Notes: generated from the letters alone by a model not told the origin. Shown: positions 7,058 to 33,746, counted from the first letter of the stretch. The stretch: DNA of 40,514 nucleotides from a virus (IMGVR_UViG_3300037634_005711:1-40514), one strand, 5' to 3'. Translations and numbers: made by a program.

Positions 7058-7981
7058 ATGAGTAAGTTAGGTAGTTTCGTTGGCAATACGCCACTCATCC
7101 CTATACACTTAGGGGAGTTAACTGTATACGGCAAAGCAGAGTTTATGAATCCAGGAGGTAGTGTGAAAGACCGAATGGCAACTTATATTCTAGATGATGC
7201 AGAAGCTAGAGGATTGATTAAGAAGGGCGATGCTTTAATAGAGGCAACTTCAGGTAATACTGGTATAGCTTTTGCTATGTTAGCGGCAGAAAGAGGTTAT
7301 AAGATGCAAATTGTTATGCCTTCTAATATGTCTATAGAGCGAAAACAAATGTTAGAGTTTTATGGAGCTAAATTAATGCAAGTAGAAGCCGGAGATTTTG
7401 ATGGAGCAATCGAATTCAGAGATATGTTAGCTAAGAAATTAGGTTATTTTAATTGTAATCAATTTCATAATCCATTAAATATTGAAGCACATTATAAAAC
7501 AACTGGTCCTGAAATACTTGAGCAATTACCTAAACCCGTAAGATATTTAAGAGCAAATCAAGGTGTAAATCCTCCAGTAGTAGATGCGTTGGTGTGCGGT
7601 ACAGGTACAGGCGGCACAATCATGGGAACAAGCAAATACCTTAAAGAACACATACCAGATATAAAGGTAGTAGCAGTTGAACCAGCCGAATCCGCAGTAA
7701 TGAGTGGAGGTGAGCCGGGCTTACATGGCATACAAGGAATAGGCGACGGTAGTAAGTTCTTAGTAGATATGGAGCAGATAGATGATGTAGTAACAGTTCC
7801 AACAGATTGTGCAAAAAAGGTAGCAAAATACTTAGCTAAACGATATGGGTTATTTGTAGGTATAAGTGCAGGTGCTAATGTAATGGCATCATTCCAATGG
7901 TTAAGAGATAATAACAAGAAGTCAGCAGTCACCATATTATGTGACAGAGGTGAAAGGTATTTAAGTTGTTTAGGGGAATAA
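7058..7981 (+). CDS. cysK: PLP-dependent cysteine synthase (CysK/CysM family)
   Basis: VGNTPL, K.EF.NPGGSVKDR, EATSGNTG, GTGTGGT, HGIQGIG, GISAGAN, CDRGERYLS. Confidence 0.93.
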   Translation: MSKLGSFVGNTPLIPIHLGELTVYGKAEFMNPGGSVKDRMATYILDDAEARGLIKKGDALIEATSGNTGIAFAMLAAERGYKMQIVMPSNMSIERKQMLEFYGAKLMQVEAGDFDGAIEFRDMLAKKLGYFNCNQFHNPLNIEAHYKTTGPEILEQLPKPVRYLRANQGVNPPVVDALVCGTGTGGTIMGTSKYLKEHIPDIKVVAVEPAESAVMSGGEPGLHGIQGIGDGSKFLVDMEQIDDVVTVPTDCAKKVAKYLAKRYGLFVGISAGANVMASFQWLRDNNKKSAVTILCDRGERYLSCLGE

Positions 7982-7983
7982 GT

Positions 7984-8418
7984 ATGTATAATATAATGTC
8001 AGCAATGTTAGTAATAGTTACAATGGTAATAACGTGTTCGCCATTAAAGGGCCCTTATGTTTCTCCGGAATTAGAACCAGCATACGAAGAATGGATTGAA
8101 GGATGTAAGTCAAGAAAAATACCATGGAAAAGAGAAGTAGTACGTATAGATTCGATATTGTACAATCCACTTGAAGAAGGATATTGGGGAAAATGCTTTG
8201 GAGACAAGATTACAATCAGTTCGAATAGTATTAGTCCTACAGATACATTTCTATTAAAGTTAATAATGTATCATGAATTAGGTCATTGTGTATTTGGTTA
8301 TGGCCATGATGATGTTGGTATAGAGATAATGAATTCGGTCTTACAGGAAGATAGGATTATGATTTATGAATACTTTTGGGAAGTAATCGAAGAGAAATAC
8401 TTCAGTTTACTTTGGTAG
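7984..8418 (+). CDS. Metzincin-type zinc metallopeptidase, probable lipoprotein
   Basis: HELGHCVFGYGH (HExxH...GxxH) followed by Met-turn 'IM'. Hydrophobic N-terminus ends VITC. ATG7984 follows the cysK stop. Confidence 0.7.
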   Translation: MYNIMSAMLVIVTMVITCSPLKGPYVSPELEPAYEEWIEGCKSRKIPWKREVVRIDSILYNPLEEGYWGKCFGDKITISSNSISPTDTFLLKLIMYHELGHCVFGYGHDDVGIEIMNSVLQEDRIMIYEYFWEVIEEKYFSLLW

Positions 8419-8464: not shown

Positions 8465-8953
8465 ATGGCAAAGTATCAATCAACAAAATTATTTGACAAC
8501 TACTCAGTAGCTATTAGACAGTGGAGAGCTCAACACTCTCACTGTCAGCTGTTACATGGATATGCTTTAAAATTTAAAGTATGGTTCGAAGCTCAAGATA
8601 AGTATGCATCTAATCCCCTCACCGGTGGATTAGATGAGATGAATTGGATCGTGGATTACGGTGGGTTTAAAGACGCGCCGATCGGAAATGGGCTAAAATC
8701 ATGGATGGATAGTATGTGGGATCACACTACCTTAATTGAGAAGGATGATCCGCAATTAGAGACATTTACATATCTAGAGGAGCTAGGGCTATGTAAGTTA
8801 GTTGTAATGGATAAAATGGGTGCAGAGAGTTGTGCTAAATTAGTATTCGACCACTTTAATAAGCGATTAGCATTAACTGATGGTGGTAGATGTAAAGTTG
8901 TTAAAGTAGAATGTTTTGAAAATGATAAGAACTCATCAATTTATAAGGAGTAG
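8465..8953 (+). CDS. queD: 6-carboxy-5,6,7,8-tetrahydropterin synthase (QueD/PTPS T-fold)
   Basis: RQW.A..SHCQLLHGY, WIVDYG, DH, AE, C-terminal V..FE...NS; cluster context. Confidence 0.88.
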   Translation: MAKYQSTKLFDNYSVAIRQWRAQHSHCQLLHGYALKFKVWFEAQDKYASNPLTGGLDEMNWIVDYGGFKDAPIGNGLKSWMDSMWDHTTLIEKDDPQLETFTYLEELGLCKLVVMDKMGAESCAKLVFDHFNKRLALTDGGRCKVVKVECFENDKNSSIYKE

Positions 8954-8955
8954 TT

Positions 8956-9747
8956 ATGAAGATTAGTCACGAAGTACCTAAGCAGTTATTCGAAGAAAGT
9001 TTAAAGTTTAATGATTATGATTATGCATTAGTTCACTTATTCGATAAAGATCCTGAATACTTACAGTTCTATAAGAATTGTGTAAATAATAATAGACATG
9101 TAATACTTGATAATAGTATTTTTGAGTTAGGTGAAGCATATGATAATGAATCTTTTGCAGAGTGGGTGAAAGAACTGCAACCTACAGAGTATATTATACC
9201 TGATGCTTTAGAGGATCTAGAAAAAACATGCTCACAAGCTCGAGATTGGTTCGATAACTATTCTGATTTACCGGGTAAGAAGATTGGTGTAGTGCAAGGT
9301 AAAAATTATTTTCAATTTGTAGACTGCTATCGATATTTAGATAGATTAGGTGTCGATAAGATTGCAATTTCATTTGATTATTCGTGGTATGAGGAGATAG
9401 CACCGCATCCAAATAAGTATATGTCATGGATGATAGGCCGCAGTACATTATTAACTAGATTAATGAAAGACGGTGTTATTAATATGAGTAAGCCACATCA
9501 TTTACTAGGATGTGGATTACCTCAAGAATTCAATCTATATAGTGGCCCTGAATTCAAATGGATTGAATCCCTTGATACTAGTAATCCAATTGTCCATGGA
9601 ATGTTACTTATTCCGTATAGCGACTCTGGACTTAAAGATAAGCTTAGTTTAAAATTAGCAGATAAGATTAATGTAGATATAAACTCTGCACAGCGAGAGG
9701 TCATTGATCATAATGTTAGAAAATTTAGAGGTTTTGTAAATGATTAG
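8956..9747 (+). CDS. dpdA: TGT-fold 7-deazaguanine transglycosylase, DpdA-like (probably the divergent DpdA3 type)
   Basis: VILDNS.FE (DSG equivalent), IPD, GVVQG, HHLLG, SLDTS. Only 263 aa with no tRNA-TGT zinc domain; embedded among que genes. Confidence 0.72.
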   Translation: MKISHEVPKQLFEESLKFNDYDYALVHLFDKDPEYLQFYKNCVNNNRHVILDNSIFELGEAYDNESFAEWVKELQPTEYIIPDALEDLEKTCSQARDWFDNYSDLPGKKIGVVQGKNYFQFVDCYRYLDRLGVDKIAISFDYSWYEEIAPHPNKYMSWMIGRSTLLTRLMKDGVINMSKPHHLLGCGLPQEFNLYSGPEFKWIESLDTSNPIVHGMLLIPYSDSGLKDKLSLKLADKINVDINSAQREVIDHNVRKFRGFVND

Positions 9748-10273
9748 ATTACCGTGGATTGCAATGTTCAGTCAAACAGGTTCTGAGATAGCTAATATTG
9801 CAGAAAAAATTAACCGATGGCCTGATTTAATTATCGTAAATGAGCGTAATATTGAGCGTATCATAGATAGTAGGTTGCAAGGTAGGAATGTTGTGTTTGT
9901 ATCTAATACACCCTCCGTATCTGAGTTAATAGATATATTTCAATGGTTTGAAAATCCACTAATAACATTACATGGTTGGTTGAGAATAATACCATCTAGT
10001 ATATGTGAGAGTTATAGTATATATAACGGTCACCCTGGTTTAATTACACGATATCCTGAATTAAAAGGTAAAGATCCGCAGATTAGAGCTATTGAAAATG
10101 GTTATCTATCAGCTGGGTGTGTAATACATAAAGTGACAGCTGGTGTAGATGAGGGAAAAGTATTATTAGAGCGAAGTTTTAGTATAGTTGGGTTGGATGA
10201 ACGAGAAATTTTTCGTATATTTAGTAAAACGAGCTTACAGCTCTGGTTAGATTTTTTAAAGACAGAATTATGA
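9740..10273 (+). CDS. PurN/GAR-transformylase-like formyltransferase (DpdN-like preQ1 formyltransferase)
   Basis: MFSQTGSE (SGxGS-like), LHGWLRII, YNGHPG, LKG, GCVIH.V..GVDEG; overlaps the dpdA-like gene. Confidence 0.8.
   Translation: MIRLPWIAMFSQTGSEIANIAEKINRWPDLIIVNERNIERIIDSRLQGRNVVFVSNTPSVSELIDIFQWFENPLITLHGWLRIIPSSICESYSIYNGHPGLITRYPELKGKDPQIRAIENGYLSAGCVIHKVTAGVDEGKVLLERSFSIVGLDEREIFRIFSKTSLQLWLDFLKTEL
10192..10223 (+). promoter_or_regulatory. Intragenic putative promoter GTTG-N20-TATATTTA
   Basis: Perfect copy (TTCG-TATATTTA) inside the formyltransferase gene, 46 nt before the kinase ATG. Confidence 0.7.
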
Positions 10274-10797
10274 AGATAGCATTTACAGGAGCACAGAGTA
10301 CAGGTAAAACTACTCTATTAAATAAATTAAGAGAAGATTCTAATTATTGGAAATATACGTTTATTGATGAAATAACTCGTAGTGTAGTAGATGCTGGAGT
10401 AGAAATCAATGAGGGTGGCACAGATAAAACGCAAATGCTGATAATGCAAGCTCATCTTGTAAATTCAATGGTACCTGATACAGTTATGGATAGATGCGCT
10501 TTAGATGGTGTCGTATATACTAGATATCTCTATAATAGGGGTCAGATATCAACTGACGTTATGGATGGTGCAGAGCAAGTATTTCAATCAGTAATCAATG
10601 AGTATGATTATATTTTCTATCTAATACCTGAATTTGATATCAAAGATGATGGTGTAAGATCTATAGACAATGATTTTAGAAATCAAATAGTAAAATTATT
10701 TGATCAATATATATTAGAATGTGAAGTGCCTGTTATTAGAATAACAGGTTCGCTAGAGGAGCGTATTAAACAAATAGAGGAAAAAATAAATGAGTAA
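10270..10797 (+). CDS. P-loop nucleoside/nucleotide monophosphate kinase-like protein (NadR-AAA/thymidylate-kinase-like)
   Basis: KIAFTGAQSTGKTT, DE.TR, VMDRCALD, DDGVR lid. Confidence 0.75.
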   Translation: MKIAFTGAQSTGKTTLLNKLREDSNYWKYTFIDEITRSVVDAGVEINEGGTDKTQMLIMQAHLVNSMVPDTVMDRCALDGVVYTRYLYNRGQISTDVMDGAEQVFQSVINEYDYIFYLIPEFDIKDDGVRSIDNDFRNQIVKLFDQYILECEVPVIRITGSLEERIKQIEEKINE

Positions 10798-11713
10798 TTC
10801 AGTTGTAGAGATAGCTAGTAAGCATTTAGGTCAAACAGTAAGTGCTTATTCCGACTTATATGATAAGTCATTATTAGTTAAAGTACCACGATACTTAAAT
10901 CGTGAAGCATATGGTATAGATGGTAAAAATTTACCATTTGTAGGGTATGATGTATGGAATTGCTACGAAGTATCAGCAATAACAGAGAAAGGTAGACCTG
11001 TTACAGGTGTGCTGAAAATCTCATGTCCATCAGATAGTGAATATCACGTAGAATCGAAAAGTATTAAACTATATCTCAATTCATTTAATATGAATCAGTT
11101 TGGTGAGCATAAAGATGAGTGTGCATCAATTATAGAAGAAGTTGTAGCGAAAGATTTATCTGAATTGCTTGAAACTAATGTTACATGTCAACTACACACA
11201 TATGAAACTATGAGTGCTGATGAATATGGAGAAGAGACATGGTTAGGATTTAACGGATTTGATAATATTGAAACATTAGTAGATTTTGATGAAGTAGAGT
11301 TTACCTCATTTAAGTCAGATGAATCACAATTAGAAGGTTATACAGAGTCCCCTGATATGAGCATTGCTACTCATTTACACACTGATATGCTTAGGTCGAA
11401 CTGTCGTGTAACTAATCAACCAGATTGGGGTGATGTATATGTTTATATGAAAGGTAAAGAAATAGTTACACCAGAATCATTCGGTAGATATATTGTATCT
11501 CATAGAAAAGTATCTCATTTCCATGAAGAAATTTGTGAAATGATTTATAAACATTTATTAGATAGGTTTAATCCTGAAGAATTAATGGTAGCATGTCTAT
11601 ATACACGCAGAGGTGGTTTAGATATTAATCCAATAAGAGCAAACAAAGTGGAGTTATTAGATCCACAATTTCATAATGTAGAATTCTTAAATGAAAAAAC
11701 TTTAAGACAATAA
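10790..11713 (+). CDS. queF: NADPH-dependent 7-cyano-7-deazaguanine reductase, bimodular (type II)
   Basis: DVWN.YE.S, ESKS.KLYLNSF, RSNC.VT.QPDWG, FHEE, YTRRGGLDINP.R. Confidence 0.95.
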   Translation: MSNSVVEIASKHLGQTVSAYSDLYDKSLLVKVPRYLNREAYGIDGKNLPFVGYDVWNCYEVSAITEKGRPVTGVLKISCPSDSEYHVESKSIKLYLNSFNMNQFGEHKDECASIIEEVVAKDLSELLETNVTCQLHTYETMSADEYGEETWLGFNGFDNIETLVDFDEVEFTSFKSDESQLEGYTESPDMSIATHLHTDMLRSNCRVTNQPDWGDVYVYMKGKEIVTPESFGRYIVSHRKVSHFHEEICEMIYKHLLDRFNPEELMVACLYTRRGGLDINPIRANKVELLDPQFHNVEFLNEKTLRQ

Positions 11714-11724
11714 GGAGAAAAAAA

Positions 11725-12561
11725 ATGGCAAAAAATAAACAAGCTGTACTTTCGTTAAGCGGTGGTATGGATTCATCTACAGTTCTGCTACACCTGTTAT
11801 CCGAAGGTTACGATGTTACAGCCGTAAGCTTTGATTACGGGCAAAAGCATCGAGTAGAGTTAGAGCGTGCTCAAGCATTAGTAGATTATTTAAATGCAAG
11901 TAAAGATGAAGTTGTAGCTGAAAATAAAATGGGTAGAACAATAGTTCATCACTTTGATAATAAAGTTAAATATCAAGTGATAAAATTAGACGGGCTAGTA
12001 GATCTATTAGATTCTGCTTTAGTAGATGGTGGCTCTGAGGTACCTGAAGGTCATTATGAAGAGGATAATATGAAAGATACTGTTGTACCTAATCGTAATA
12101 AAATGTTCTCATCAATTATTCAAGCAATTGCGTTATCTATTGCAAATAAAAATGACTGTGATGTAGATATTGCAATGGGTATTCACGCAGGTGATCATGC
12201 AATCTATCCAGATTGTAGACAAGAGTTTAGAGATGCAGATTATGATGCGTTTTTACAAGGCAATTGGGATGCTGCAAGAGTTAAATATTATACTCCATAT
12301 TTAACAGGTGACAAATTTGATATCTTAAAAGATGGTGAGGTATGTTGTAACGAGTTAGGATTGGATTTTGATGAAGTATATAAGCGTACTAATACATCTT
12401 ATAAACCTACAGCAGAAGGATTATCAGATTATAAATCAGCATCATCTGTTGAACGTATTGAAGCATTTATTAAATTGGGTAGAAAAGATCCTGTAGCATA
12501 TGTAGATGGATGGGATACTGCAAAGACTCACGTAGAAAAATTATTAGCCGAATATGAATAA
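11725..12561 (+). CDS. queC: 7-cyano-7-deazaguanine synthase
   Basis: SLSGGMDS, FDYGQKH..E, VVPNRN, GIHAGD...YPDCR, R.EAF...G..DP..Y. Confidence 0.95.
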   Translation: MAKNKQAVLSLSGGMDSSTVLLHLLSEGYDVTAVSFDYGQKHRVELERAQALVDYLNASKDEVVAENKMGRTIVHHFDNKVKYQVIKLDGLVDLLDSALVDGGSEVPEGHYEEDNMKDTVVPNRNKMFSSIIQAIALSIANKNDCDVDIAMGIHAGDHAIYPDCRQEFRDADYDAFLQGNWDAARVKYYTPYLTGDKFDILKDGEVCCNELGLDFDEVYKRTNTSYKPTAEGLSDYKSASSVERIEAFIKLGRKDPVAYVDGWDTAKTHVEKLLAEYE

Positions 12562-13327
12562 GAGAATTAAACACTATGATAAAGTACTCCCTGTACTTGA
12601 AGTATATAGATGTATACAGTCAGAGGGGAGTAGATTCGGAAGACCTACAATTGCTATAAGAACAACGGGGTGTACACATCGTTGCTACTTTGGTGAAGGT
12701 GGGTGGTGTGATTCCTGGTACACATCTATACATCCTGAGAAAGGTACTTTTACATTTAATGATATTATCAAAATATATGATGATAATCCTCATGTAAAAG
12801 AGATGATGTTAACAGGAGGTTCTCCAACAATGCACCCTGCATTAGTAAACGAATTGACACATTTTGCTCATGAAAGAAACATTATTATTACTATCGAAAC
12901 TGAAGGATCTCGTTTTGTTGAAACCGATTATCCTATTGATCTTATCTCTCTTAGCCCTAAATTCAGTAATTCAGTTCCTGTTATCGGAGCTGTTACTCCT
13001 GGTGGGAAAGTGGTTGACGAAAAAATGATAAGAATTCATAATATGAAGAGACAGAATACAGAGGAAATTAAAAAAACTCTAGCTTTTCATAAAGATTATC
13101 ACTATAAACCTGTATGGGATGGAACTGATGAAAATCTAGAAGAAATTGAATCTTATAGAATAGAGTTAGGAGTTCCTAAAGATAAAACATATATTATGCC
13201 CGCAGGTGATACGCGAGCTACATTAGTGGAAATGTATCCTAAAGTATTTGAAATGTGTGCAGAACGAGGATATAATATGACTGGTAGAGATCATATAATC
13301 GCATTTGATACAGAGAGAGGGGTATAA
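12554..13327 (+). CDS. queE: 7-carboxy-7-deazaguanine synthase (radical SAM)
   Basis: E.Y..IQSEG...G.P...IR..GC, Cx3Cx7C, LTGG.P, IETEG, SLSPK, R.H. Confidence 0.93.
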   Translation: MNKRIKHYDKVLPVLEVYRCIQSEGSRFGRPTIAIRTTGCTHRCYFGEGGWCDSWYTSIHPEKGTFTFNDIIKIYDDNPHVKEMMLTGGSPTMHPALVNELTHFAHERNIIITIETEGSRFVETDYPIDLISLSPKFSNSVPVIGAVTPGGKVVDEKMIRIHNMKRQNTEEIKKTLAFHKDYHYKPVWDGTDENLEEIESYRIELGVPKDKTYIMPAGDTRATLVEMYPKVFEMCAERGYNMTGRDHIIAFDTERGV

Positions 13328-13863
13328 TGAAGTTACTTATTCCAGAGTATAAAATAGAACGACGCGTAAGAGCGCTAGCTCACAGGATATCAGAAGAGCA
13401 TAAGACATCAGGTAATCCACATCCACCAGTAATGGTATGCGTATTGAATGGTGCATTTATGTTTTTTACAGATCTTATTAAAGATATGGGAATTGATGTA
13501 GAGATTGATTTTATTCGTGCAAAATCTTATAAGAGTAACGGATTAACTCATGCAGGTGGAGTTGAGATTACTAAAAATATAGAGATAGAATTAGAGGGTA
13601 AGCGAGTATATATTGTAGATGATATGATAGATACAGGAGCTACGATGCTTGAAGTTATATTTCATGTAGAAGAAAAAAAGCCTGCTGATATTCAGATTGT
13701 AACTCTAGTTGATAGGGCAGATTCACGGGATGACTTACCAAATAATCATACAGCATTCCCTAATATGGGTGATGATTGGTTTGTTGGTTATGGATTTGAT
13801 GATAATGGATTAAAGAGAAATTATAGAAACATTTATAGTGCAAGTGTTGATGATTCGAAATGA
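13327..13863 (+). CDS. hpt: Hypoxanthine/guanine phosphoribosyltransferase-like (type I PRTase)
   Basis: VLNGAFMF..DL, KSY loop, VYIVDDMIDTGAT PRPP motif, FVGYGFD...RN. Confidence 0.88.
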   Translation: MKLLIPEYKIERRVRALAHRISEEHKTSGNPHPPVMVCVLNGAFMFFTDLIKDMGIDVEIDFIRAKSYKSNGLTHAGGVEITKNIEIELEGKRVYIVDDMIDTGATMLEVIFHVEEKKPADIQIVTLVDRADSRDDLPNNHTAFPNMGDDWFVGYGFDDNGLKRNYRNIYSASVDDSK

Positions 13864-13877
13864 TTTTCTTATATTTA
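13846..13877 (+). promoter_or_regulatory. Putative promoter GTTG-N20-TATATTTA
   Basis: Recurrent motif upstream of folE-dut-pol. Confidence 0.75.
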
Positions 13878-13900
13878 GAGTATAAAATAAAGGTAAAACT

Positions 13901-14560
13901 ATGAGTAAAAATTTTGAAATAGCTAGACTAGGGTTTGCTAACGGAGCTGCAAGTAGTAGTCCGTTAACAGATAAAGAGAAGCAGATAATGATTATGGATG
14001 CAGCTGATGCATTTGGTAAGTTTTTAGACGCACTGTTAGTAGATTGGCGCAATGATCCGAATTCAGATAATACACCTACGAGAGTAGCTAAAGCGTATGT
14101 CAACGATCTATGGGCTGGTAGATATGAAGAGCCGCCATCGATTACTGGATTCCCGTCTGATGGATATGATGGAATTGTATTTGAAGGAGGTATACCTCTA
14201 ACATCTATGTGTTCACATCATCATCAAACTATTAATGGTAAGGTACATATTGGTTACATCGCATCAAAAACAGGTACAGTTGTCGGGTTAAGTAAGCTTA
14301 ATAGAATCGTAGAGCATTTCGGGAGAAGAGGTGCTATTCAAGAGCAATTAACTGTCGCTATACATAATGCTGTAGATCAGATATGTACAGGTAACTTAGG
14401 AGTCGCTGTTATGATTGAAGCTACTCACAATTGTGTATCGTGCAGAGGAGTCAATCATTCAGGTGCAAGTATGAAAACAAGTAAATTAACTGGCTCGTTC
14501 TTGAAGGAAGATTCTGCAAGAGCTGAGTTTTATGAATTTTGTAAAGGATATAAATGTTAA
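13901..14560 (+). CDS. folE: GTP cyclohydrolase I
   Basis: TP.RVAK, SMCSHH, VGLSKLNRIV, IQEQLT, HNCVSCRG. Confidence 0.96.
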   Translation: MSKNFEIARLGFANGAASSSPLTDKEKQIMIMDAADAFGKFLDALLVDWRNDPNSDNTPTRVAKAYVNDLWAGRYEEPPSITGFPSDGYDGIVFEGGIPLTSMCSHHHQTINGKVHIGYIASKTGTVVGLSKLNRIVEHFGRRGAIQEQLTVAIHNAVDQICTGNLGVAVMIEATHNCVSCRGVNHSGASMKTSKLTGSFLKEDSARAEFYEFCKGYKC

Positions 14561-15057
14561 ACGCGAAAGAAATTCTTGAAGAAAAGCTAATAGTATTAGA
14601 TAATGCTAAAGGTAAACCTGCTCAAGTTGGATATGACCTGAGTATTAAAAGTATTAAAAAGTTAACAGGTGATGGTCAAGTATTAAAAAATAAGACTATT
14701 GTAAATAAGTTAGATACTATATCTATGACTGAGGCAATGGATTTAGAAGGGGTTGAAGTAAATGGTTGGTGGTTAGAGCCTGGTACTTATGATGTTACAT
14801 GTAATGAGGGCTGTAACATACATGCTAATAGAACTGCCATGGTAAGGCAAAGATCTTCACTATTGCGTAATGGTGCTATTATAGCTAGCTCTATATTCGA
14901 TCCTGGATTCTATACAGATAATATCGGTACAGTAATGGTTGTAAACGAACGCATCTTTATTGAGAAGGATGCTAGAATAGCACAAATGTATTTTCATGAA
15001 AATAATGAAGGGGAGTTGTATGATGGACAATTCCAAAACGATAAGCAAAGAAAATAA
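14554..15057 (+). CDS. Trimeric dUTPase/dCTP-deaminase-fold protein (probably dUTPase-type)
   Basis: GYDL, RSSLLR, FDPGF, RIAQ, Y.GQFQ. No Dcd catalytic Glu after DPGF. Confidence 0.82.
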   Translation: MLNAKEILEEKLIVLDNAKGKPAQVGYDLSIKSIKKLTGDGQVLKNKTIVNKLDTISMTEAMDLEGVEVNGWWLEPGTYDVTCNEGCNIHANRTAMVRQRSSLLRNGAIIASSIFDPGFYTDNIGTVMVVNERIFIEKDARIAQMYFHENNEGELYDGQFQNDKQRK

Positions 15058-17589
15058 TTGTATCAAAGTATTTATATAGACAGGCATAAGCGTAAGGTTC
15101 ACTTATGGGATGATAAGGATGGATATACAATAGAATCCCTCCATCCTTATCTATATGGATATTTTAAAGATCCACGTGGTAAGAAAAAAGCTATCGATGG
15201 TAAAACTGTTCGTAGAATTAAAGTTACAGAAGAAGTAAAACATGCTGCGAGGAGTTCTGATAAGAAGCATTTATATTATGAAACAGATGTAGCATTAGAG
15301 ACCAGAGTACTTATCGATAAATATGGCGATTCAGATACCCCTAGTACTAATCTGCGTGAGTTCAATTTTGATATTGAGACAGAGATACTGCAAGGATTTC
15401 CAGATTGGAAAAATCCTATAAATCAAATAACTGCAATAGCTTGGCATGAGAAATCATTAGATGAATATTGTGTATTAGTTCTTGATGAAGATGGATTAGT
15501 TGAAGATTCTGTAAAGGGTAATGTAGAGATTATATCGTGTCGAGATGAGCAGCAACTATTAGAGATATTTCTAGATAAATATGCCCAGATAGCACCACAT
15601 GTATTAACGGGATGGAATGTTGAAGGATTTGATATCCCATATCTAATTAATAGGATTGGTCGCGTATTAGGAGATGATGCAGCTCGTAAGTTAAGCCCTG
15701 TTGGTAGGATTTCATATAGAGATGGTATTGATAAGTGGTTTATAGAAGGTGTATCTATATTAGATTATATGTTATTGTATAAGAAATTTACTATGGGTGA
15801 GAAGCCAACATATCGATTAGATGCAATTGGTAAAGATGAGGTAAATTTAGGTAAGATTGAATACGATGGTAATCTAGATGATTTATTTGCTAGTGATATC
15901 AATAAGTATATTGAATATAACTTAAATGATGTTGAAATTGTCAAGAGGTTAGATGATAAACTTAAATTTATAGATTTAGCTAGAGCAATATGTCATAAAG
16001 GTCATGTTCCATATCAACAAATACATATTACATCTGCATATCTTGAAGGAGCTATACTAACGCATACTCATAGATTAGGAGTAGTCACAAAGAATAAGCC
16101 GCAGGATGTTGTTAAAGAAAGTAAATTTTCTGGTGCATTCGTAAAAGTGCCAAATCCTGGTAGGTATGATTGGATATATGATTTAGATTTAACATCACTA
16201 TACCCATCTATTATTATGACGTTGAATATATCACCAGAAACAAAAATTGGAAAATTCGATGACTTTAATACAGATGATTTTAGAAGTAGAAAGTCTCGAG
16301 ATTGGAGATTAGATATTGATGGTAAGATGTCTGTAGATATGAAAGGTGATGAGATATTTGAATTTCTAAATACTGAGAAATGTTCAATTGGATCTAATGG
16401 AGCTATTTACAAGACGGAAAAAGCTGGCCTGATTCCTGCTATATTAGATAGATGGTTTAAAGAGAGAGTTGAGTATAAAAATTTACGTAAGAAGTTTGAG
16501 AAGGAAGGTAATGAAGCGCAAGCCGCTTACTTTGATCAAATGCAATATGTAACGAAAATCTTACTTAATTCTATGTACGGTGTATTAGGATTGAAATCAT
16601 TTAGATTCTTTGATATTGATAATGCTGAAGCTGTTACAGCTACAGGTCAACAATTAATTAAAGCAACTGGTGAGTTTGGCAGTAAGTTTTATAACGACGA
16701 GATAGGTACAAAAGATATCGATTATATTATATATACAGATACAGACTCAGTATTCTTAAGTGCACTACCACTAATTAATAAGCGATATCCGCATATTGAT
16801 ACTGAAGATAAAACTGCGATGACAAAAGCAATTTTACCTATTGCAGAAGAAGTTCAAGATTATATCAATAAGATGTATGATTTATATGCAAAGAGGATAC
16901 ATAATGTAGATATACATCGATTTGATATAAAGCAGGAGCTAATATCTAAATCAGGGATATGGATAGCAAAAAAGAGATATGCACAGTGGGTGATTAATCA
17001 AGAGGGACATCCTTGTGATAAGTTAGATGTAAAAGGTATTGATGTTGTAAGATCTAGCTTTCCAGCTGCTATGAGAAAATTTTTAGCTAATGTTTTGCAG
17101 AGTATATTAGAGAATAAAACTCAATTTACTATTGATGAAATGATAGTTGATTTTAGAGATAAGATGAAGGAGATGGATGTATCAGAGATCGCTAAATCAA
17201 CAGGTGTAAAAAATATTGAGAAGCATGTATTTAAAGATGATGGTATTATAGAGTTACAGAAAGGAGCTCCTGCACATGTTAAAGCTGCTGTAGCATATAA
17301 TAATATGTTACGTAGAATAGAATCAGGTGAGTTAGGTGAAATACGTAGTGGTGACAAAATCAAATGGGTATATTTAAAAACTAACCCACAGGGGTTAGAT
17401 GCTATGGCATTTAAAAATTATGATGATCCAGATCAAATTATAGAGTTTATATCTAAGTATGTTAATTATGATAAGATATTTGATAGAGAGTTACATAATA
17501 AACTGAGTTCGTTCTACGATGCACTCAAATGGGGTAAAGTACCTAATCATGATATGAAACAAATTAATAAATTTTTCGACTTCTCGTAG
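15058..17589 (+). CDS. Family B DNA polymerase with 3'-5' exonuclease
   Basis: FDIETE, GWN..GFD, YNLNDV, DLTSLYPS, K...NSMYG, YTDTDS, KKRY, KGID.VRS, C-terminal clamp-binding-like INKFF. TTG start abuts the previous stop. Confidence 0.97.
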   Translation: MYQSIYIDRHKRKVHLWDDKDGYTIESLHPYLYGYFKDPRGKKKAIDGKTVRRIKVTEEVKHAARSSDKKHLYYETDVALETRVLIDKYGDSDTPSTNLREFNFDIETEILQGFPDWKNPINQITAIAWHEKSLDEYCVLVLDEDGLVEDSVKGNVEIISCRDEQQLLEIFLDKYAQIAPHVLTGWNVEGFDIPYLINRIGRVLGDDAARKLSPVGRISYRDGIDKWFIEGVSILDYMLLYKKFTMGEKPTYRLDAIGKDEVNLGKIEYDGNLDDLFASDINKYIEYNLNDVEIVKRLDDKLKFIDLARAICHKGHVPYQQIHITSAYLEGAILTHTHRLGVVTKNKPQDVVKESKFSGAFVKVPNPGRYDWIYDLDLTSLYPSIIMTLNISPETKIGKFDDFNTDDFRSRKSRDWRLDIDGKMSVDMKGDEIFEFLNTEKCSIGSNGAIYKTEKAGLIPAILDRWFKERVEYKNLRKKFEKEGNEAQAAYFDQMQYVTKILLNSMYGVLGLKSFRFFDIDNAEAVTATGQQLIKATGEFGSKFYNDEIGTKDIDYIIYTDTDSVFLSALPLINKRYPHIDTEDKTAMTKAILPIAEEVQDYINKMYDLYAKRIHNVDIHRFDIKQELISKSGIWIAKKRYAQWVINQEGHPCDKLDVKGIDVVRSSFPAAMRKFLANVLQSILENKTQFTIDEMIVDFRDKMKEMDVSEIAKSTGVKNIEKHVFKDDGIIELQKGAPAHVKAAVAYNNMLRRIESGELGEIRSGDKIKWVYLKTNPQGLDAMAFKNYDDPDQIIEFISKYVNYDKIFDRELHNKLSSFYDALKWGKVPNHDMKQINKFFDFS

Positions 17590-18358: not shown

Positions 18359-18646
18359 ATGTTTATACCGATAAACGACAATGTGGTTATTAAACCTATT
18401 GATGCACAGGATGTAACACACGGTGGTGTTATTATACCTGATACATCACAAGAAGCAACTATGCAGGCAGAAGTTGTAGCACACGGACCTGGAGCTGTAT
18501 TAATGGACGGAAAACGTCATAATATGCAGGTAGAGATTGGTAGTAAAGTTGTGTATGCAAAATTTGGTGCAAAGAAGTTAGATTATCAAGGTGAAGAGTA
18601 TCTAATTTGTAAAGAAGCAGATTTATTAACAATTATAGAGGAATAA
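18359..18646 (+). CDS. groES: Co-chaperonin GroES
   Basis: PINDNVVI, T.GGVIIPD mobile loop, VVA.GPG, G.KV.Y.K, EYLI..E.DLL.II. Confidence 0.96.
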   Translation: MFIPINDNVVIKPIDAQDVTHGGVIIPDTSQEATMQAEVVAHGPGAVLMDGKRHNMQVEIGSKVVYAKFGAKKLDYQGEEYLICKEADLLTIIEE

Positions 18647-20295
<1,649 letters not shown>

Positions 20296-23783: not shown

Positions 23784-25214
23784 ATGCAAGTACCAGAGTT
23801 ACAAACTACTAATAAGAAAAAAATATTATTACTATCAGATGATTTGAGATTGCATTCAGGTGTAGGTACTATGTCAAAAGAGTTCGTTATGGGAACTCTA
23901 CATAAATACGACTGGGTACAGATTGGTGGAGCAGTTAAGCATCCGGATGAGAATAAGGTAATAGATATGTGTAAAGCGGCTACAGATTATACAGGTGTAC
24001 AAGACGCATATTTGAAAGTATATGCAACATCAGGATACGGTAATCAACATATATTACGTCAAGTTATTCAAATAGAGAAACCTGATGCTATTATGCATTT
24101 TACAGATCCTAGATTCTGGGGTTGGTTGTATGATATGGAGCATGAGCTGCGTCAGACTATGCCATTATTATATTATAATATTTGGGATGATCTACCATTT
24201 CCACACTGGAATGAAGATTTCTATGAAACATGTGATTTATTAATGGCTATATCTAAACAGACATATAATATTAATAAGCATGTATGCCAGCGCAAGCCTA
24301 GAGTAGAAGGCGTAGATTTAGCATATGTACCGCATGGTATAAATACAGATATATTCTATCCAATAGATGTAAATAATGGTGAGTATATAGCTTTTAAGGA
24401 TAAATTACTTAATGGTAAGGAGTATGATTTTCTAGCGCTATTTAATAGTCGCAACATTCACCGTAAGCGTCCAAGTGATTTAATGTTAGCATTTAAAAAG
24501 TTCTGTGATACATTACCAAGTGATTCTGCTAAAAAGTGTGCACTAATAATGCATACTGATATATCTGATCAAGCTGGGACTGACCTTCTTGCAGTTAAAC
24601 ATGCGTTATGTCCAGATTATGATATTATCTTTAGTAACCGTAAGCTACCACCACTGCAATTAAATTATTTATATAATATAGCTGATATTACTTGCAATCC
24701 ATCATCTGCAGAAGGATTTGGGCTATCTCATATGGAATCATTAATGGCAGGTACCCCGACGATAGCAACAGTAGTTGGCGGGTTACAAGATCAAATGGGA
24801 TTCATATGTGAAGATGGTGAGCCATTCAATGTTAAGCATTTAACAAAAGACATCCCGAGTAATAGTACAGGTGAGATTTCTGAAGATTGGGGTAAGTGGG
24901 TTTACCCATTATGGCCGCAGATGAATCTACAAGGATCACCTATGACTCCATATATTTATGATTCAAGACCTAGTGTTAAGAGCATTGAAGATGGATTTGC
25001 GTGGTGGTATAATATGTCTAAGGAACAGAGAGTAGTATGCGGTGAAGCAGGTCGCAAATGGGCTATTGATAATGGATTCACATCTGAAGGTATGTGTGAT
25101 GCTATGATTACATCGATTGAAGGGTGCTTTGATACGTGGAAGCCTAGAGCAAAATTCACCTTAATTAATACAAATGTAGAAAAAATAACCTATCCACATG
25201 GAGCTTTAATATAA
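23784..25214 (+). CDS. GT-B (GT4-like) glycosyltransferase
   Basis: SGVG, VPHGIN, RNI.RKR, YN.AD...PS..EGFGLS.MES..AGTP. Confidence 0.9.
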   Translation: MQVPELQTTNKKKILLLSDDLRLHSGVGTMSKEFVMGTLHKYDWVQIGGAVKHPDENKVIDMCKAATDYTGVQDAYLKVYATSGYGNQHILRQVIQIEKPDAIMHFTDPRFWGWLYDMEHELRQTMPLLYYNIWDDLPFPHWNEDFYETCDLLMAISKQTYNINKHVCQRKPRVEGVDLAYVPHGINTDIFYPIDVNNGEYIAFKDKLLNGKEYDFLALFNSRNIHRKRPSDLMLAFKKFCDTLPSDSAKKCALIMHTDISDQAGTDLLAVKHALCPDYDIIFSNRKLPPLQLNYLYNIADITCNPSSAEGFGLSHMESLMAGTPTIATVVGGLQDQMGFICEDGEPFNVKHLTKDIPSNSTGEISEDWGKWVYPLWPQMNLQGSPMTPYIYDSRPSVKSIEDGFAWWYNMSKEQRVVCGEAGRKWAIDNGFTSEGMCDAMITSIEGCFDTWKPRAKFTLINTNVEKITYPHGALI

Positions 25215-26533
25215 TGAAACCAGTTTTAGCAATTAGTTGCCCTGCATCAAGTAGAAGCGGGTATGGAGATCACTCAAGAGATTTAATTAGAAGTCTAATA
25301 TCTATGGATAAATTTGATATTAAGATTCTCGATCAAGTATGGGGAGGGTGTCCACGGAATGCGCTGAATCCTGATACTGATCAAGATATCATAACTAGAT
25401 GTATTGGTGGTTTAGAAGCACAACCAGATGTATGGATACAAGTTACAGTACCAAATGAATTTCAACCTGTAGGTAAGTATAATATAGGTATTACAGCAGG
25501 AATGGAAACTGATTTGATATCAGCTCCATGGGTTCAAGGATGTAATAGAATGAATCTTATTATTGTACCATCAAAACACTCAAAAGAGGTTTTTGAAAAG
25601 ACAACATATGATCAGCAAGATAAAAATACAGGTCAGAAGACTGGAGAGTTGAGAGTTACTACTCCTATTGAAGTGCTATTTGAAGGATTAGATTTAAACA
25701 CTTATAATAAGATTACAGATAAGAGTAAGCTACCAGCTACGATCGTAAGCTCGATTGATGAAATACCAGAAGATTTTTGCTTCTTATTTGTCGGACATTG
25801 GTTGAGTGGACAACTGCACCATGATAGGAAAGATGTAGGTGGAATGTTACAAACATTCTTACACACATTTAAAGATCAAGCTCCAAGGAACCAACCAGCT
25901 TTGATAATAAAGACATCATCAGCTACATTTAGTGTTATAGATAGAGAAGATATGATACGCCGTATCAACGGAATTAAAGCAATGATGGGTAGTAACAAAC
26001 TACCTAATATATATTTACTCCACGGAGACTTAACACCGAGTGAGATGAATGGATTGTATAATCACCCTAAAGTTAAATCTATGGTTAGCTTTACTCACGG
26101 AGAGGGATTTGGAAGACCTTTACTAGAATTCAGCGTAACAGGTAAGCCAGTAGTAGCTACTAATTGGTCAGGTCACATTGATTTCTTAGATAAGTACGGA
26201 TTTGGATTACCTGGTGAGTTAAAGCCTGTGCACGATAGTGCTACATGGAAAGATGTAATAATACCTGAATCAAAGTGGTTCTATGTTAATCATGGATATG
26301 CGTCAGGGGTGTTAAAGGATGTAGTTAAGAATTATAAAGTATATTTAGAGACATCCCGGAAGCAAACACAGTATGTGAAGTCTAACTTCACTTTAGAGAA
26401 GATGGATGAGGTATTTAAAGATATGGTAAATAGAAACGTACCTGAATTTCCTAAACAGCAGGAATTAGTACTACCAAAATTACCAAAACTAAATCCAGTT
26501 AAACTACCAAAACTGGAGAAACAAGATGTCTAA
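25214..26533 (+). CDS. GT-B (GT4-like) glycosyltransferase
   Basis: SGYG, IVPS, FLFVG...RKD, GEGFGRPLLE...GKPVVATNWSG. Confidence 0.9.
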   Translation: MKPVLAISCPASSRSGYGDHSRDLIRSLISMDKFDIKILDQVWGGCPRNALNPDTDQDIITRCIGGLEAQPDVWIQVTVPNEFQPVGKYNIGITAGMETDLISAPWVQGCNRMNLIIVPSKHSKEVFEKTTYDQQDKNTGQKTGELRVTTPIEVLFEGLDLNTYNKITDKSKLPATIVSSIDEIPEDFCFLFVGHWLSGQLHHDRKDVGGMLQTFLHTFKDQAPRNQPALIIKTSSATFSVIDREDMIRRINGIKAMMGSNKLPNIYLLHGDLTPSEMNGLYNHPKVKSMVSFTHGEGFGRPLLEFSVTGKPVVATNWSGHIDFLDKYGFGLPGELKPVHDSATWKDVIIPESKWFYVNHGYASGVLKDVVKNYKVYLETSRKQTQYVKSNFTLEKMDEVFKDMVNRNVPEFPKQQELVLPKLPKLNPVKLPKLEKQDV

Positions 26534-26903
26534 TATAATTGCAGATGGTGACGATAAACTTAATATTCAAACAGGATACTTTACACGTAAATCATTTACT
26601 AAAGATGATACATCAGTTGCTAAATATGAAGCAACAATTACAGCTTTAATACGATCGACTCGGAAACTTGAAGATGGTAGGTATTGGTATCTAACAACTA
26701 TGGCACTACCAGCCGGAATATTATTCCCAGCTGGTAGTCCTAATGACTACGAATGGCTAGTTGCACCTGTAGTAGCTATGGAGGTGGAGCAGAAGGATGC
26801 ATATAAAGACTCAGGAGACGCAGGAGAGACTAGAGTTGCTATAGAGGATGCAAAGAAATTTCAAAAGTTTCAAGAAGCGTTAGTTTACTTAGGAATGTTG
26901 TAG
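26526..26903 (+). CDS. Hypothetical protein
   Basis: GGAG RBS; overlaps both neighbours. Confidence 0.65.
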   Translation: MSNIIADGDDKLNIQTGYFTRKSFTKDDTSVAKYEATITALIRSTRKLEDGRYWYLTTMALPAGILFPAGSPNDYEWLVAPVVAMEVEQKDAYKDSGDAGETRVAIEDAKKFQKFQEALVYLGML

Positions 26904-27340
26904 TGAAGCACCTTAACGAGCATCTACGTAGAGCTAATCAAAAGTTAGCAATTGCAAAAGCACAGTTAGAGAAAGGTATGGTTGTTGAGATGATGTATAA
27001 GCCTGAAAAAGGTAATCTCAAACGATATGTCTTAACAGTATTGAATGCAAATTTTCAAGGTAAGATGCACGCTATATCAATGGAAAATGTATCACATAGA
27101 GCTTACACTGATTTCGTTGACGATATAGGTATTAGATACATTCCTAGATTTCAAAAATATAGAGGTGTTAATGTATCGAAAGTTGTAATGGATGTATCAT
27201 CTAGAAGGTTCTATGCTGGTAAATTGAGAGATAATTTACAAGACTGTTATCGAACATTCAATGTAAGAAAGATAAATTCAGTGCGATTAATTGATTATGA
27301 ATTCGATGAGACTCTTATTAACAAATATTTGATAGATTAA
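26903..27340 (+). CDS. Hypothetical protein, possibly WYL-like fold
   Basis: GTG start coupled to the upstream TAG; VVEMMY...G..K and YRTFNVRKI.SV segments. Confidence 0.55.
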   Translation: MKHLNEHLRRANQKLAIAKAQLEKGMVVEMMYKPEKGNLKRYVLTVLNANFQGKMHAISMENVSHRAYTDFVDDIGIRYIPRFQKYRGVNVSKVVMDVSSRRFYAGKLRDNLQDCYRTFNVRKINSVRLIDYEFDETLINKYLID

Positions 27341-27359
27341 AATAAAATTCGTATATTAA
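27328..27359 (+). promoter_or_regulatory. Putative promoter TTTG-N20-TATATTAA
   Basis: Recurrent motif ending 7 nt before the GT2 ATG. Confidence 0.75.
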
Positions 27360-27366
27360 GGTTATT

Positions 27367-27999
27367 ATGAAAATAAGTTATGCAATTACTGCTTGGAATG
27401 AGCACAGAGAGTTAGATAAATTATTACAATTTCTGATAGAACATAAACGAGATCAGGATGAAATTGTAGTACAGACAGATAGTGGTAAAACTACAGAAGA
27501 AGTTTATGATGTATTAGAAAGTTATGAAAGCAAGGCTCAGTATGATGATTATCATCACTACTCCTTTCCATTAAATAATAACTTTGCTCAATATAAAAAT
27601 AAATTAAATTCATCTTGTAGTGGAGATTGGATATTTCAAATTGATGCAGATGAATTGCCAAATGAATATCTCATTCAAGCACTACCATTTATATTAGAAG
27701 CTAATCCAGGTACAGAAGCATACTGGGTACCAAGAGTAAATACAGTTGCAGGTATTACAGATGCTCATATTCAGAAATGGGGTTGGCGTGTTGATGATCG
27801 AGGTTGGGTAAACTTCCCTGATTGGCAAATGAGAATATATAGAAACAAACCTGAAATCTATTGGATGAAGCCGGTACACGAGCAACTTAAAGGATATACT
27901 AAATTTGTAAATTTACCACCAGAAGAGAAGTTTACGTTGTACCATCCAAAGAATATTGGTAGACAGGAAGCTCAGAATAAATTTTACGAGAGCTTATAA
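27367..27999 (+). CDS. GT-A (GT2) glycosyltransferase
   Basis: ISYAI...NE, EIVV, KN......GDWIFQIDADE, PD.Q.R, VHE. Confidence 0.9.
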   Translation: MKISYAITAWNEHRELDKLLQFLIEHKRDQDEIVVQTDSGKTTEEVYDVLESYESKAQYDDYHHYSFPLNNNFAQYKNKLNSSCSGDWIFQIDADELPNEYLIQALPFILEANPGTEAYWVPRVNTVAGITDAHIQKWGWRVDDRGWVNFPDWQMRIYRNKPEIYWMKPVHEQLKGYTKFVNLPPEEKFTLYHPKNIGRQEAQNKFYESL

Positions 28000-28874
28000 T
28001 GAGAGAGGTTAAGTTAATAACGAATTGTGAAAGACCACCCAATTGGTTAATGGATATTGCAGTAAAGCATTGGTTAGATAGTGGATTTAAACCTGAAAAT
28101 TTAATATTTTTAGTGAATAATTTATCTAATTTTGATATGGTTGCTGAATTAAAAAAACGATATAATATAGATGCTACTCGAGTGCAGTCTGCAAATGACA
28201 TTTATAGAAAAGATAAATGTGTTGTATGGGATGATCTTCAAGAATTTGATTATGGTAGATATCATGATGTCGAAGCTCCTATTATAAATAATGTTCAACA
28301 TATATTATTGAATAAGGGAGTTGATGTTGTTATATTCTTAGATAGAGATGAATTACTATGGCATGAGAGCGGTGATTTAATAAACGTATTAAATACATTT
28401 GAAGAGCCTATAATAAGACCTCGTGGTATAGAAGTGATTCAAACAGGTGATGAACTACCATTAGATTTATCTAAACCTATTTCAGAGCAAAGGAAGTGGT
28501 GTCGATGGTTTCCATCAAAAAGTAAAGCGTGTATAACTAGAGTACCTGTTGATTGGATGATTGGGAGACATGGTACAACTTGTGGTCGTTGGCCTCATGC
28601 TGATGCTCACTACCATCCTGAATTACAAACTCACCCACAAGCTGATATATCTGAACATTCTAGGTTATACTTAGTGCATTTTGATAAAGTTGATATGAAT
28701 TTATTATATAAACTAAGGATGGAAAGTCAAGAATTATTTAAGACAAACGACAGACATACAGGAGTCGTTGATGAGCAATCATTTACAGAATGGTTCACTG
28801 AAGCGCATAAAGAAACTATATCAGATAGGATAATGTATGATTGCGGTGACTTCTTAAAGAGAGTAGGAGTATAA
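27999..28874 (+). CDS. GT-A glycosyltransferase-like protein (divergent GT2)
   Basis: VIFLDRDELL DxD motif, SK...IT, GRH, LVH; cluster context. Confidence 0.65.
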   Translation: MREVKLITNCERPPNWLMDIAVKHWLDSGFKPENLIFLVNNLSNFDMVAELKKRYNIDATRVQSANDIYRKDKCVVWDDLQEFDYGRYHDVEAPIINNVQHILLNKGVDVVIFLDRDELLWHESGDLINVLNTFEEPIIRPRGIEVIQTGDELPLDLSKPISEQRKWCRWFPSKSKACITRVPVDWMIGRHGTTCGRWPHADAHYHPELQTHPQADISEHSRLYLVHFDKVDMNLLYKLRMESQELFKTNDRHTGVVDEQSFTEWFTEAHKETISDRIMYDCGDFLKRVGV

Positions 28875-29425
28875 TGGAAGTATTACAATCAACGGTATTT
28901 AGAGATGTAAAAGTATTTACACCTACTGTGTATACAGATACTAGAGGATTCTTTATGGAATCTTATAATCAGCAAATTCAGAATATACTAGGTGTAGAGT
29001 TCCTGCAAGATAATCACTCTAAATCAAAGCGAGGCGTTATACGAGGCCTCCATTATCAATGGGATGCGCCGATGGGTAAGCTAGTACGAGTACCAGTAGG
29101 CTCAGGTATTGACGTTATTGTTGATATTAGAAAGAATTCACCTACATTTGGTATGTCAGAGCAATTTGAATTATCTGATGTAACTAATAGGATTGTATGG
29201 GTACCGCCAGGGTTTGCTCATGGATTTATATCACTACAAGATAATACTCATTTAATGTACAAAAATACTGCATTGCATAATAGTGCTACAGAAGGAGCAA
29301 TACATCCGTTTGATGTAAGATTGAACATTGATTGGGGAATGCATAAGTCACAAATAATATTATCTGAGAAGGATAACTTAGCACAATCATTCTCAGATTA
29401 CAAAAAGGATCCAAAATTTATATGA
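28874..29425 (+). CDS. rmlC: dTDP-4-dehydrorhamnose 3,5-epimerase
   Basis: D.RGFFMESY, QDNHS.S..GVIRGLHYQ, KLVR, VDIR..SPTFG, VPPGFAHGF, LSEKD. Confidence 0.95.
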   Translation: MEVLQSTVFRDVKVFTPTVYTDTRGFFMESYNQQIQNILGVEFLQDNHSKSKRGVIRGLHYQWDAPMGKLVRVPVGSGIDVIVDIRKNSPTFGMSEQFELSDVTNRIVWVPPGFAHGFISLQDNTHLMYKNTALHNSATEGAIHPFDVRLNIDWGMHKSQIILSEKDNLAQSFSDYKKDPKFI

Positions 29426-31073: not shown

Positions 31074-31091
31074 TTATTTTTCTTATATTAT
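31061..31091 (+). promoter_or_regulatory. Putative promoter TTTG-N19-TATATTAT
   Basis: Recurrent motif with a 19-nt spacer, heading the DJ-1...GT block. Confidence 0.7.
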
Positions 31092-31118
31092 AGTAAATAA
31101 AAAAAGGTAAGTTATATT

Positions 31119-32331: not shown

Positions 32332-32334
32332 ATA

Positions 32335-33745: not shown

Positions 33746-33746
33746 T

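Follow-up and report, generated by a model that had tools for sequence, protein, structure and literature searches.

For phages that replace every guanine of their genomes, the published model, in which the substitute base is inserted after replication, rests on the homology of the enzyme DpdA3 to tRNA-guanine transglycosylases (TGT). The question of how they do so is raised by a gene cluster in the virus record IMGVR_UViG_3300037634_005711:1-40514. The window analysed here is the whole of this linear record, 40,514 nt in length. It comes from an uncultured virus and is estimated to be 17% complete, so the absences reported below hold for the window only. The cluster encodes DpdA3, the formyltransferase DpdN, a small kinase and a dUTPase-fold protein alongside the genes for making the 7-deazaguanine base. 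We found that the kinase is a conserved partner of DpdA3, which fits a route at the nucleotide level, and we consider it likely, with some reserve, that the modified base is made before replication on free nucleotides and is then incorporated by the polymerase.

The DpdA3/DpdN cluster of the window

An earlier reading made from the DNA alone (the sequence-only reading) had described a contiguous run of eleven genes from queD to polB at 8465-17589. Pfam and NCBIfam matches bear this out, with all eleven genes on the + strand:

8465-8953, + strand: queD, 6-carboxytetrahydropterin (CPH4) synthase; PF01242, E 8.7e-12; 1e-37 to immuto_2-6A QueD
8956-9747, + strand: dpdA3, TGT-fold guanine transglycosylase; no Pfam match; 58% to immuto_2-6A gp65
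9740-10273, + strand: dpdN, PurN-like formyltransferase; PF00551, E 3.6e-12; 1e-63 to immuto gp67
10270-10797, + strand: small P-loop kinase with a fold of the NadR-kinase, deoxynucleoside kinase (dNK) and thymidylate kinase (TMK) type; PF13521 (AAA_28), E 7e-20
10790-11713, + strand: bimodular queF, preQ0 reductase; PF14819 and PF14489; TIGR03138, E 1e-71
11725-12561, + strand: queC, preQ0 synthase; PF06508, E 8.8e-38
12554-13327, + strand: queE, radical SAM 7-carboxy-7-deazaguanine (CDG) synthase; TIGR03365, E 6.9e-16; 2e-119 to immuto QueE
13327-13863, + strand: Hpt-like phosphoribosyltransferase (PRTase); TIGR01203, E 1.9e-37, below cut-off
13901-14560, + strand: folE, GTP cyclohydrolase I; PF01227, E 6.7e-42; 71% to immuto FolE
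14554-15057, + strand: trimeric protein of the dUTPase/dCTP deaminase (DCD) fold, archaeal-type subfamily; NF002598, E 3e-26, below cut-off
15058-17589, + strand: polB, family B DNA polymerase with proofreading domain; PF00136 and PF03104

The second gene is a 263-aa open reading frame (ORF) that matches gp65 of Flavobacterium phage immuto_2-6A at 58% over 262 aa and CPT_0056 of CP220 at 45%; the supplement of Cui et al. (PMC10516641) counts both phages among those with DpdA3. In a fold search, the best matches of its AlphaFold2 (AF2) model (pLDDT 94.8) were tRNA-guanine transglycosylases and bDpdA, including ArcTGT 1iq8 (Z 18.4, rmsd 2.9, 233 aa aligned) and bDpdA 7ui4 (Z 16.9). All 20 aligned members share D52, D83, an H182-L-G motif and D207. 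We take D52, D83 and D207 to be the TGT catalytic aspartates from motif likeness, only the D207 region being aligned to 7ui4. Since this DpdA3 orthologue with a TGT fold is followed by a DpdN matching immuto gp67, the window cluster is, as judged from its sequence, a further member of the published DpdA3/DpdN formyl-dPreQ1 (fdPreQ1) system, the identity that the sequence-only reading had assigned to it. By orthology, we predict that formyl-preQ1 takes the place of essentially all G in the genome of the window phage. With the published system (PMC10516641) the window shares all seven orthologues, the order dpdA3-dpdN-kinase-queF and a PRTase beside folE. It differs in forming one compact cluster, in carrying PolB and not PolA, in having a trimeric dUTPase-fold gene instead of a phosphoribosyl-ATP pyrophosphohydrolase (PRA-PH)/MazG gene, and in a PRTase of Hpt length instead of a short one.

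Two other assignments were rejected. DpdA3 profiles matched none of seven control phages of the DpdA1/2 type (9g, phi3:1, Hedgerow, Knedl, VH7D, pf16 and Mendera; 9g and VH7D typed from the Cui et al. supplement, the other five by annotation or inference), and membership of the DpdA1/DpdA2 families was set aside. The post-replicative DpdA1/DpdA2/bDpdA systems (9g, VH7D; PDB 7UI4) share the TGT barrel, an HLLG...D motif and the preQ0/preQ1 genes with the window, whereas they form a separate sequence family with partial modification and no kinase in the cluster. The second rejected assignment was a tRNA queuosine pathway. A Pfam scan of 53 + strand ORFs of the window gave no match to the QueA, QueG or TGT families, in agreement with the sequence-only reading, and neither QueH nor a Tgt with a CxCxxC zinc site was found in the window; this zinc motif is absent from the window DpdA3. 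No tRNA genes were found in the window.

The DpdA3 family comprises 3990 clusters at 90%, and 935 representatives at 50% have E below 1e-30. Among the best 150 of 5627 DpdA3 representatives we found 10 long proteins: two DpdA3-DpdN fusions (P0289 and P0292), two homing-endonuclease-type fusions and six with no or weak family match. A search for longer DpdA3 proteins, limited to 591-2000 aa, gave one intein-bearing match, and no viral relatives of the Bacillus DpdA3 were found. Unannotated DpdA3 genes, each followed by a dNMP kinase gene, were observed in the Vibrio phages D479 (L114:6411-8300) and Bakedbeans (L292:9489-10987). These two genes were not seen in the published DS1 table; MA9V-3, Youna2 and CC_R7 likewise carry DpdA3. 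The sixth row of the fold search with the DpdA3 model was 9ntn_B, from a Cap10-CdnD complex with NDG modification (Z 14.1), a TGT-fold relative in a protein complex and a possible precedent for use of the fold away from polynucleotides.

The kinase beside dpdA3

Of 12 cultured DpdA3 phages, 10 have a kinase gene no more than three genes away from dpdA3. Three unrelated kinase families occupy this place, and some of their members are fused to DpdL or FolE. The gene in question encodes an AAA_28 kinase in immuto, CP220 and CC_R7 and an AAA_18 kinase in phiST and MA9V-3; in D479, Ahp1 and Bakedbeans (the last below cut-off) a T4 gp1-type dNMP kinase (PF21448) stands directly behind dpdA3, and BSTP12 and Youna2 have a P-loop protein with weak profile matches. 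The phiST gene, CGPG_00066, which we found to encode an AAA_18 kinase, was set aside as unshared in the published study, and the words 'kinase' and 'phosphoribosyl' appear nowhere in its main text (PMC10516641). Our literature search found no paper tying a kinase to DpdA3; subscription journals and later reviews could bear on this.

The same linkage was observed in viral loci, for which we took the 80 most similar out of 592, 344 and 298, respectively. We grouped 103 dpdA3-anchored loci (the best 80 of 592, two further sets and the window) into 59 clusters at 90% identity, dropped 16 with less than 2 kb of flank and kept 43 with at least 2 kb on each side. An AAA_28 kinase was located within 2 kb of dpdA3 in 38 of the 43 clusters (5 of 8 at 60% clustering). 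Counting the DpdL-kinase fusions in two of the misses raises these numbers to 40 of 43 and, at 60% clustering, to 7 of 8. The remaining three misses come from a sister lineage whose cluster has neither queF nor dpdN; 10 of 10 near-complete genomes of this kind have DpdA3, lack bimodular QueF and carry one kinase of the same family elsewhere. In the lineage without an adjacent kinase, a pyrimidine-dimer glycosylase-family gene was seen directly behind dpdA3 (L016:10783-11265). The fusions comprise DpdL-kinase proteins (L029:9082-9996 and L030:7189-8157) and a kinase-FolE protein (L259:5553-6665). Scanning in reverse from the kinase, dpdA3 was present in 65 of 68 new loci, and the other three end just upstream. 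The kinase adjoins dpdA3 even where neither queF nor dpdN is present, as in CP220, CC_R7 and two other loci (L014 and L024).

None of the seven control clusters contained a kinase, a PRTase or the window-type dUTPase subfamily within ~6 kb of folE (8 control ORFs Pfam-scanned). Searched genome-wide with the window kinase profile, and not with the AAA_18 or DNMK families, the controls gave a match in VH7D only, which was weak and far from the cluster, with a NadR-sized frame of 327 aa scoring best. In a tree built from 36 selected DpdA3 proteins, the type of kinase tracks the deep branches; therefore the pairing of kinase and dpdA3 was made or replaced several times. The part that the sequence-only reading gave the kinase in a nucleotide-level route is in keeping with these results.

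The window kinase is a single 175-aa domain (AF2 model, pLDDT 91). The closest folds to the model are NadR 8x7f (Z 18.4, rmsd 2.2, 163 aligned), dNK 1ot3 (Z 15.6), deoxyguanosine kinase 2ocp (Z 15.4) and TMK 2v54 (Z 15.3). The modelled fold, common to nucleoside and NMP kinases, does not fix the substrate. The nicotinamide mononucleotide (NMN) adenylyltransferase domain is absent. We predict that the protein is a candidate kinase for a modified nucleoside or dNMP. Its closest cultured homologues (36-39%) are in DpdA3 phages, while homologues in Streptomyces phages stand at ~24%; such distant homologues occur in 71 Streptomyces phage records and are mostly annotated as thymidylate kinase among the matches listed. 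In the Firehammerviruses CC_R7 (L277:2046-3049) and CP220 (L278:1908-2911), a second kinase of the same family adjoins a canonical-looking dUTPase gene far from dpdA3. In another locus (L120:9980-11341) the cluster kinase has a C-terminal extension of ~280 aa with no Pfam match.

The T4-type hydroxymethylcytosine (hmC) pathway is a pre-replicative base substitution that uses a phage dNMP kinase and a dNTP pyrophosphatase. The placement of PF21448 kinases directly after dpdA3 in D479, Ahp1 and Bakedbeans follows the same logic. The two differ in that the base of the window is a purine and not a pyrimidine, and in that the window kinase comes from another family.

The dUTPase-fold protein, the PRTase and the polymerase

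The nearest solved structure to the dUTPase-fold protein is 9w59 (E 7.6e-24), a probable dUTPase; a literature search found no paper describing PDB 9W59/9W5A. Its motif III differs from that of canonical dUTPases, and an attempt to read the specificity from this motif gave no assignment. The best cultured match (44%) is in the DpdA3 phage MA9V-3. In total, nine cultured records match: the DpdA3 phages MA9V-3, RHph_I1_18 and D479, and six DAC-like Bacteroides phages. In a reverse scan from this gene, 80 of 80 loci had deazaguanine genes, and dpdA3 was in the flank of 60. A genome-wide search of the controls with the subfamily profile gave one marginal match, in 9g.

We then compared this gene with the immuto-type MazG gene beside dpdA3, in 49 distinct DpdA3 loci with at least 7 kb on each side. 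The dUTPase-fold gene alone was present in 19 loci, MazG alone in 24, both in none and neither in 6; of these last six, two have other MazG/PRA-PH genes and one has a canonical dUTPase gene. The two types have been swapped several times on the DpdA3 tree. A separate canonical dUTPase gene is also present in D479, G001 and DAC16. The pattern may reflect a swappable dGTP pyrophosphatase like MazZ or two kinds of dUTPase, which explain it about as well. The protein is thus a candidate dGTP pyrophosphatase, or a plain dUTPase. The sequence-only reading had counted it as the dNTPase of the route; its alternation with MazG-type hydrolases beside dpdA3 agrees with that role, and a plain dUTPase fits too.

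The PRTase was found in 3 of the 12 cultured DpdA3 phages and, in two types, beside folE in many contigs. We rejected it as a core part, given its absence from the other nine. It is an optional gene, likely for guanine salvage, and salvage fits either route. The sequence-only reading had used the PRTase as evidence for the route, which this distribution does not allow; the survey of kinase and hpt synteny with dpdA3 that it had called for came out in favour of the kinase and not of the PRTase.

The same reading had also pointed to the adjacent polymerase. A polymerase gene is located beside the deazaguanine cluster in 4 of the 7 controls (9g, Knedl, pf16 and Mendera). The adjacency of polymerase and hydrolase does not discriminate between routes, because controls have them as well. 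Motifs A, B and C of the window PolB look ordinary, and the polymerase family varies among DpdA3 phages (PolB, PolA, Pol III alpha). This suggests that any selectivity resides more likely in the nucleotide pool than in the polymerase.

The cluster is flanked by a T4-like replication module with a gp32-like single-stranded DNA-binding protein, RecA, helicase, class II ribonucleotide reductase (RNR), GroES/EL and clamp loader genes; one further flanking ORF is probably clamp-like, as judged from its position and size. Overlapping stop and start codons, which the sequence-only reading had noted, do exist at 6 of 10 junctions in the cluster. They are ordinary, since 19 of 35 junctions elsewhere in the window overlap as well, and were rejected as a sign of special coupling. 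The GroES and GroEL genes lie inside the replication module at 18359-20278, as in immuto_2-6A. Between the RNR gene and queD (7058-8418) there is a pyridoxal phosphate (PLP)-dependent cysteine-synthase-like gene (PF00291) and a 150-aa ORF with an HExxH motif; the pair occurs in one close relative (L006) and is absent from the others. The region 23784-39324 holds glycosyltransferase, RmlC/RmlD-like, epimerase, cytidylyltransferase, WbqC, PIG-L and malate/lactate dehydrogenase-family genes, and is likely concerned with glycosylation of the virion or the host surface.

Routes to complete replacement of guanine

Gene content, folds and co-occurrence were observed, and from them we infer every enzymatic step after preQ1. 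The dUTPase-fold enzyme (MazG in relatives) would convert dGTP to dGMP, which removes the competitor and supplies the substrate, like MazZ of Z-genomes; this step could equally well hold or fail. DpdA3 would then swap guanine for preQ1 on dGMP or deoxyguanosine, and DpdN would formylate the amine, as PurN does on a small amino-nucleotide. The phage kinase would phosphorylate the product, and host kinases would finish the triphosphate; the kinase step is the best supported one. The unspecialised PolB would incorporate the modified dNTP because dGTP is depleted. Where present, the PRTase would recycle the released guanine to GMP and GTP. This scheme would work like the purZ-mazZ-datZ Z-cluster of S-2L (PMC8342488) in its dGMP-level substrate, in the dGTP pyrophosphohydrolase that supplies it, in the removal of the canonical dNTP and in the interchangeable hydrolase variants. 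The chemistry in the window would differ, being a transglycosylation that needs a phage kinase. The window is not a member of the Z-cluster, and the PurZ and DatZ families (adenylosuccinate synthetase, HD) had no match among its 53 ORFs. An earlier proposal for Campylobacter phages, made at a time when DpdA3 had yet to be recognised, already invoked modified dGTP (PMC6884629).

Several points weigh against this nucleotide-level route. Crippen in 2019 reportedly saw dITP but no dADG phosphate in CP220-infected Campylobacter. DR2231-type MazG proteins can be dUTPases, and the cluster gene is the sole trimeric dUTPase-fold gene in most genomes, so the mutual exclusion with MazG may be one between two kinds of dUTPase. 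We identified no candidate dGTP hydrolase for CP220, BSTP12 or Youna2. In the controls pf16 and Mendera a pyrophosphohydrolase or dUTPase gene and a polymerase gene lie near the cluster. The best fold match of the kinase is NadR and not a dNMP kinase, and the best 150 of the 5627 representatives included no fusion of DpdA3 to a kinase. Acidic pI or a missing zinc motif was tried as a sign that DpdA3 does not bind DNA and was discarded; the DpdA1/2 controls likewise have no such motif and are acidic or neutral themselves, so that neither charge and pI nor the motif separates the two groups. The viral loci are mutually related and were ranked by their likeness to the window, so their counts are not independent. 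Two cultured phages are misses. In RHph_I1_18 no kinase adjoins dpdA3, and an AAA_28 gene lies elsewhere. The Wroclawvirus 30-3 has a 540-aa TGT-like protein and neither the kinase nor the window-type dUTPase subfamily; this protein matches DpdA3 weakly and may be of another type. It carries a DSGG motif (Pseudomonas phage 30-3, L298:4167-5789), its gene has polB, a clamp-like gene, a glycosyltransferase gene, dpdL and a PRTase gene as neighbours, with no kinase gene, and it is possibly misfiled if counted as DpdA3.

The Bacteroides phage DAC16 also weighs against the route, since it encodes both the kinase and the dUTPase-fold protein but has neither folE nor dpdA3. Either this contradicts the route or it points to a different way of substituting G. 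In DAC16 (L113:7944-9426 and L274), the dUTPase-fold gene is directly followed by a gene of the IMP dehydrogenase (IMPDH)/GMP-reductase family; the canonical dUTPase gene is 5 kb away and a kinase of the same family is encoded elsewhere in the genome. A possible route would lead from dGTP through dGMP to dIMP and so to an inosine genome. The Fletchervirus genome is reported to hold inosine (PMC13091555). In Fletchervirus NCTC12673 we found nothing that credibly matches the dUTPase subfamily, the kinase or the GMP reductase, and with all three genes unmatched this phage lends the idea no support. No viral relatives of the DAC16 GMP reductase were found.

The sequence-only reading had called the insertion route unresolved; Cui 2023 does propose one, concluding that DpdA3 inserts the base after replication, and every DpdA tested inserts its base into DNA (PMC10516641). 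In this published model DpdA3 would swap preQ1 into new DNA, DpdN would formylate it there, and the kinase and the dUTPase-fold protein would be products of ordinary dNTP-supply genes in a replication operon. The TGT/DpdA fold of DpdA3, the mostly thymidylate kinase-labelled Streptomyces phage homologues, the two genes of DAC16 without the pathway and the probable dUTPase nearest to the hydrolase all speak for it, and the DpdA3-DpdN fusions are compatible with either substrate. It leaves unexplained the three unrelated kinase families beside dpdA3, the fusions of kinases to DpdL and FolE and the absence of the kinase from all seven DpdA1/2-type clusters. In addition, DpdA3 achieves 100% replacement of G, with full substitution measured in the three DpdA3 phages CP220, phiST and immuto, whereas DpdA1, 2 and 4 get no further than ~30%, and tests of DpdA3 failed in E. 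coli, where other DpdA enzymes work (PMC10516641). We regard this model as rather unlikely.

A hybrid of the two, in which DpdA3 works on DNA while modified nucleosides or dNMPs from proofreading or turnover are salvaged by the kinase, so that re-entry of part of the modified base through the polymerase completes the substitution, would cover both the kinase linkage and the TGT precedent. A nucleoside of 7-amido-7-deazaguanine (ADG) was noted in CP220-infected cytoplasm (PMC10516641), which speaks for the nucleotide-level route as well, and the kinase fold is common to nucleoside kinases. Yet one would then expect salvage in DpdA1 phages too, and these, at ~30% modification, have no such kinase; moreover, the hybrid gives the dUTPase/MazG partner no reason; we find it improbable.

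We hold out little hope for a ribonucleotide route, in which the PRTase would join preQ1 to phosphoribosyl pyrophosphate (PRPP), DpdN would formylate and the kinase phosphorylate the product, and the class II RNR would convert it to the deoxy form. The toyocamycin PRTase, which acts on preQ0, provides a precedent, a PRTase is encoded in the cluster and in two types beside folE in many loci, and the RNR gene is 1.4 kb upstream. However, nine of the 12 cultured DpdA3 phages have no PRTase, including the fully substituted CP220, and the invariant DpdA3 would be left without a job. Least probable of all, and silent on the insertion route, is that the kinase is a NadR-type ribosylnicotinamide kinase feeding NAD(P)H to QueF, as its best fold match, database labels that read nicotinamide riboside kinase and a queF following it in 65 of 68 kinase-anchored loci might suggest, because it adjoins dpdA3 without queF in CP220, CC_R7, L014 and L024, is kept in the 10 genomes without bimodular QueF, is replaced by dNMP kinases in D479 and Ahp1 and has no NMN adenylyltransferase domain.

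The likely missing parts of the pathway are the conserved kinase and hydrolase, and the route to full replacement of G becomes directly testable. A wider form of the nucleotide-level route is more tentative, and we put it forward as an idea that may well prove wrong: DpdA3 would not modify DNA but would be a TGT-fold transglycosylase for a free nucleotide and, with the kinase and a dUTPase-fold enzyme retargeted to dGTP, would make up a third natural route to a non-canonical genetic alphabet. This 'G-cluster' would be a counterpart of the Z-cluster and extend across thousands of phage protein clusters. In DAC-like Bacteroides phages, the kinase and hydrolase would support a G-to-inosine genome based on GMP reductase. 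If true, the nucleotide-level route would overturn the claim that 7-deazaguanine modification of DNA always follows replication. DpdA3 would then be the first enzyme of the TGT family to work on a free nucleotide, and analogues of 7-deaza-dGTP as well as fully substituted DNA could be made enzymatically.

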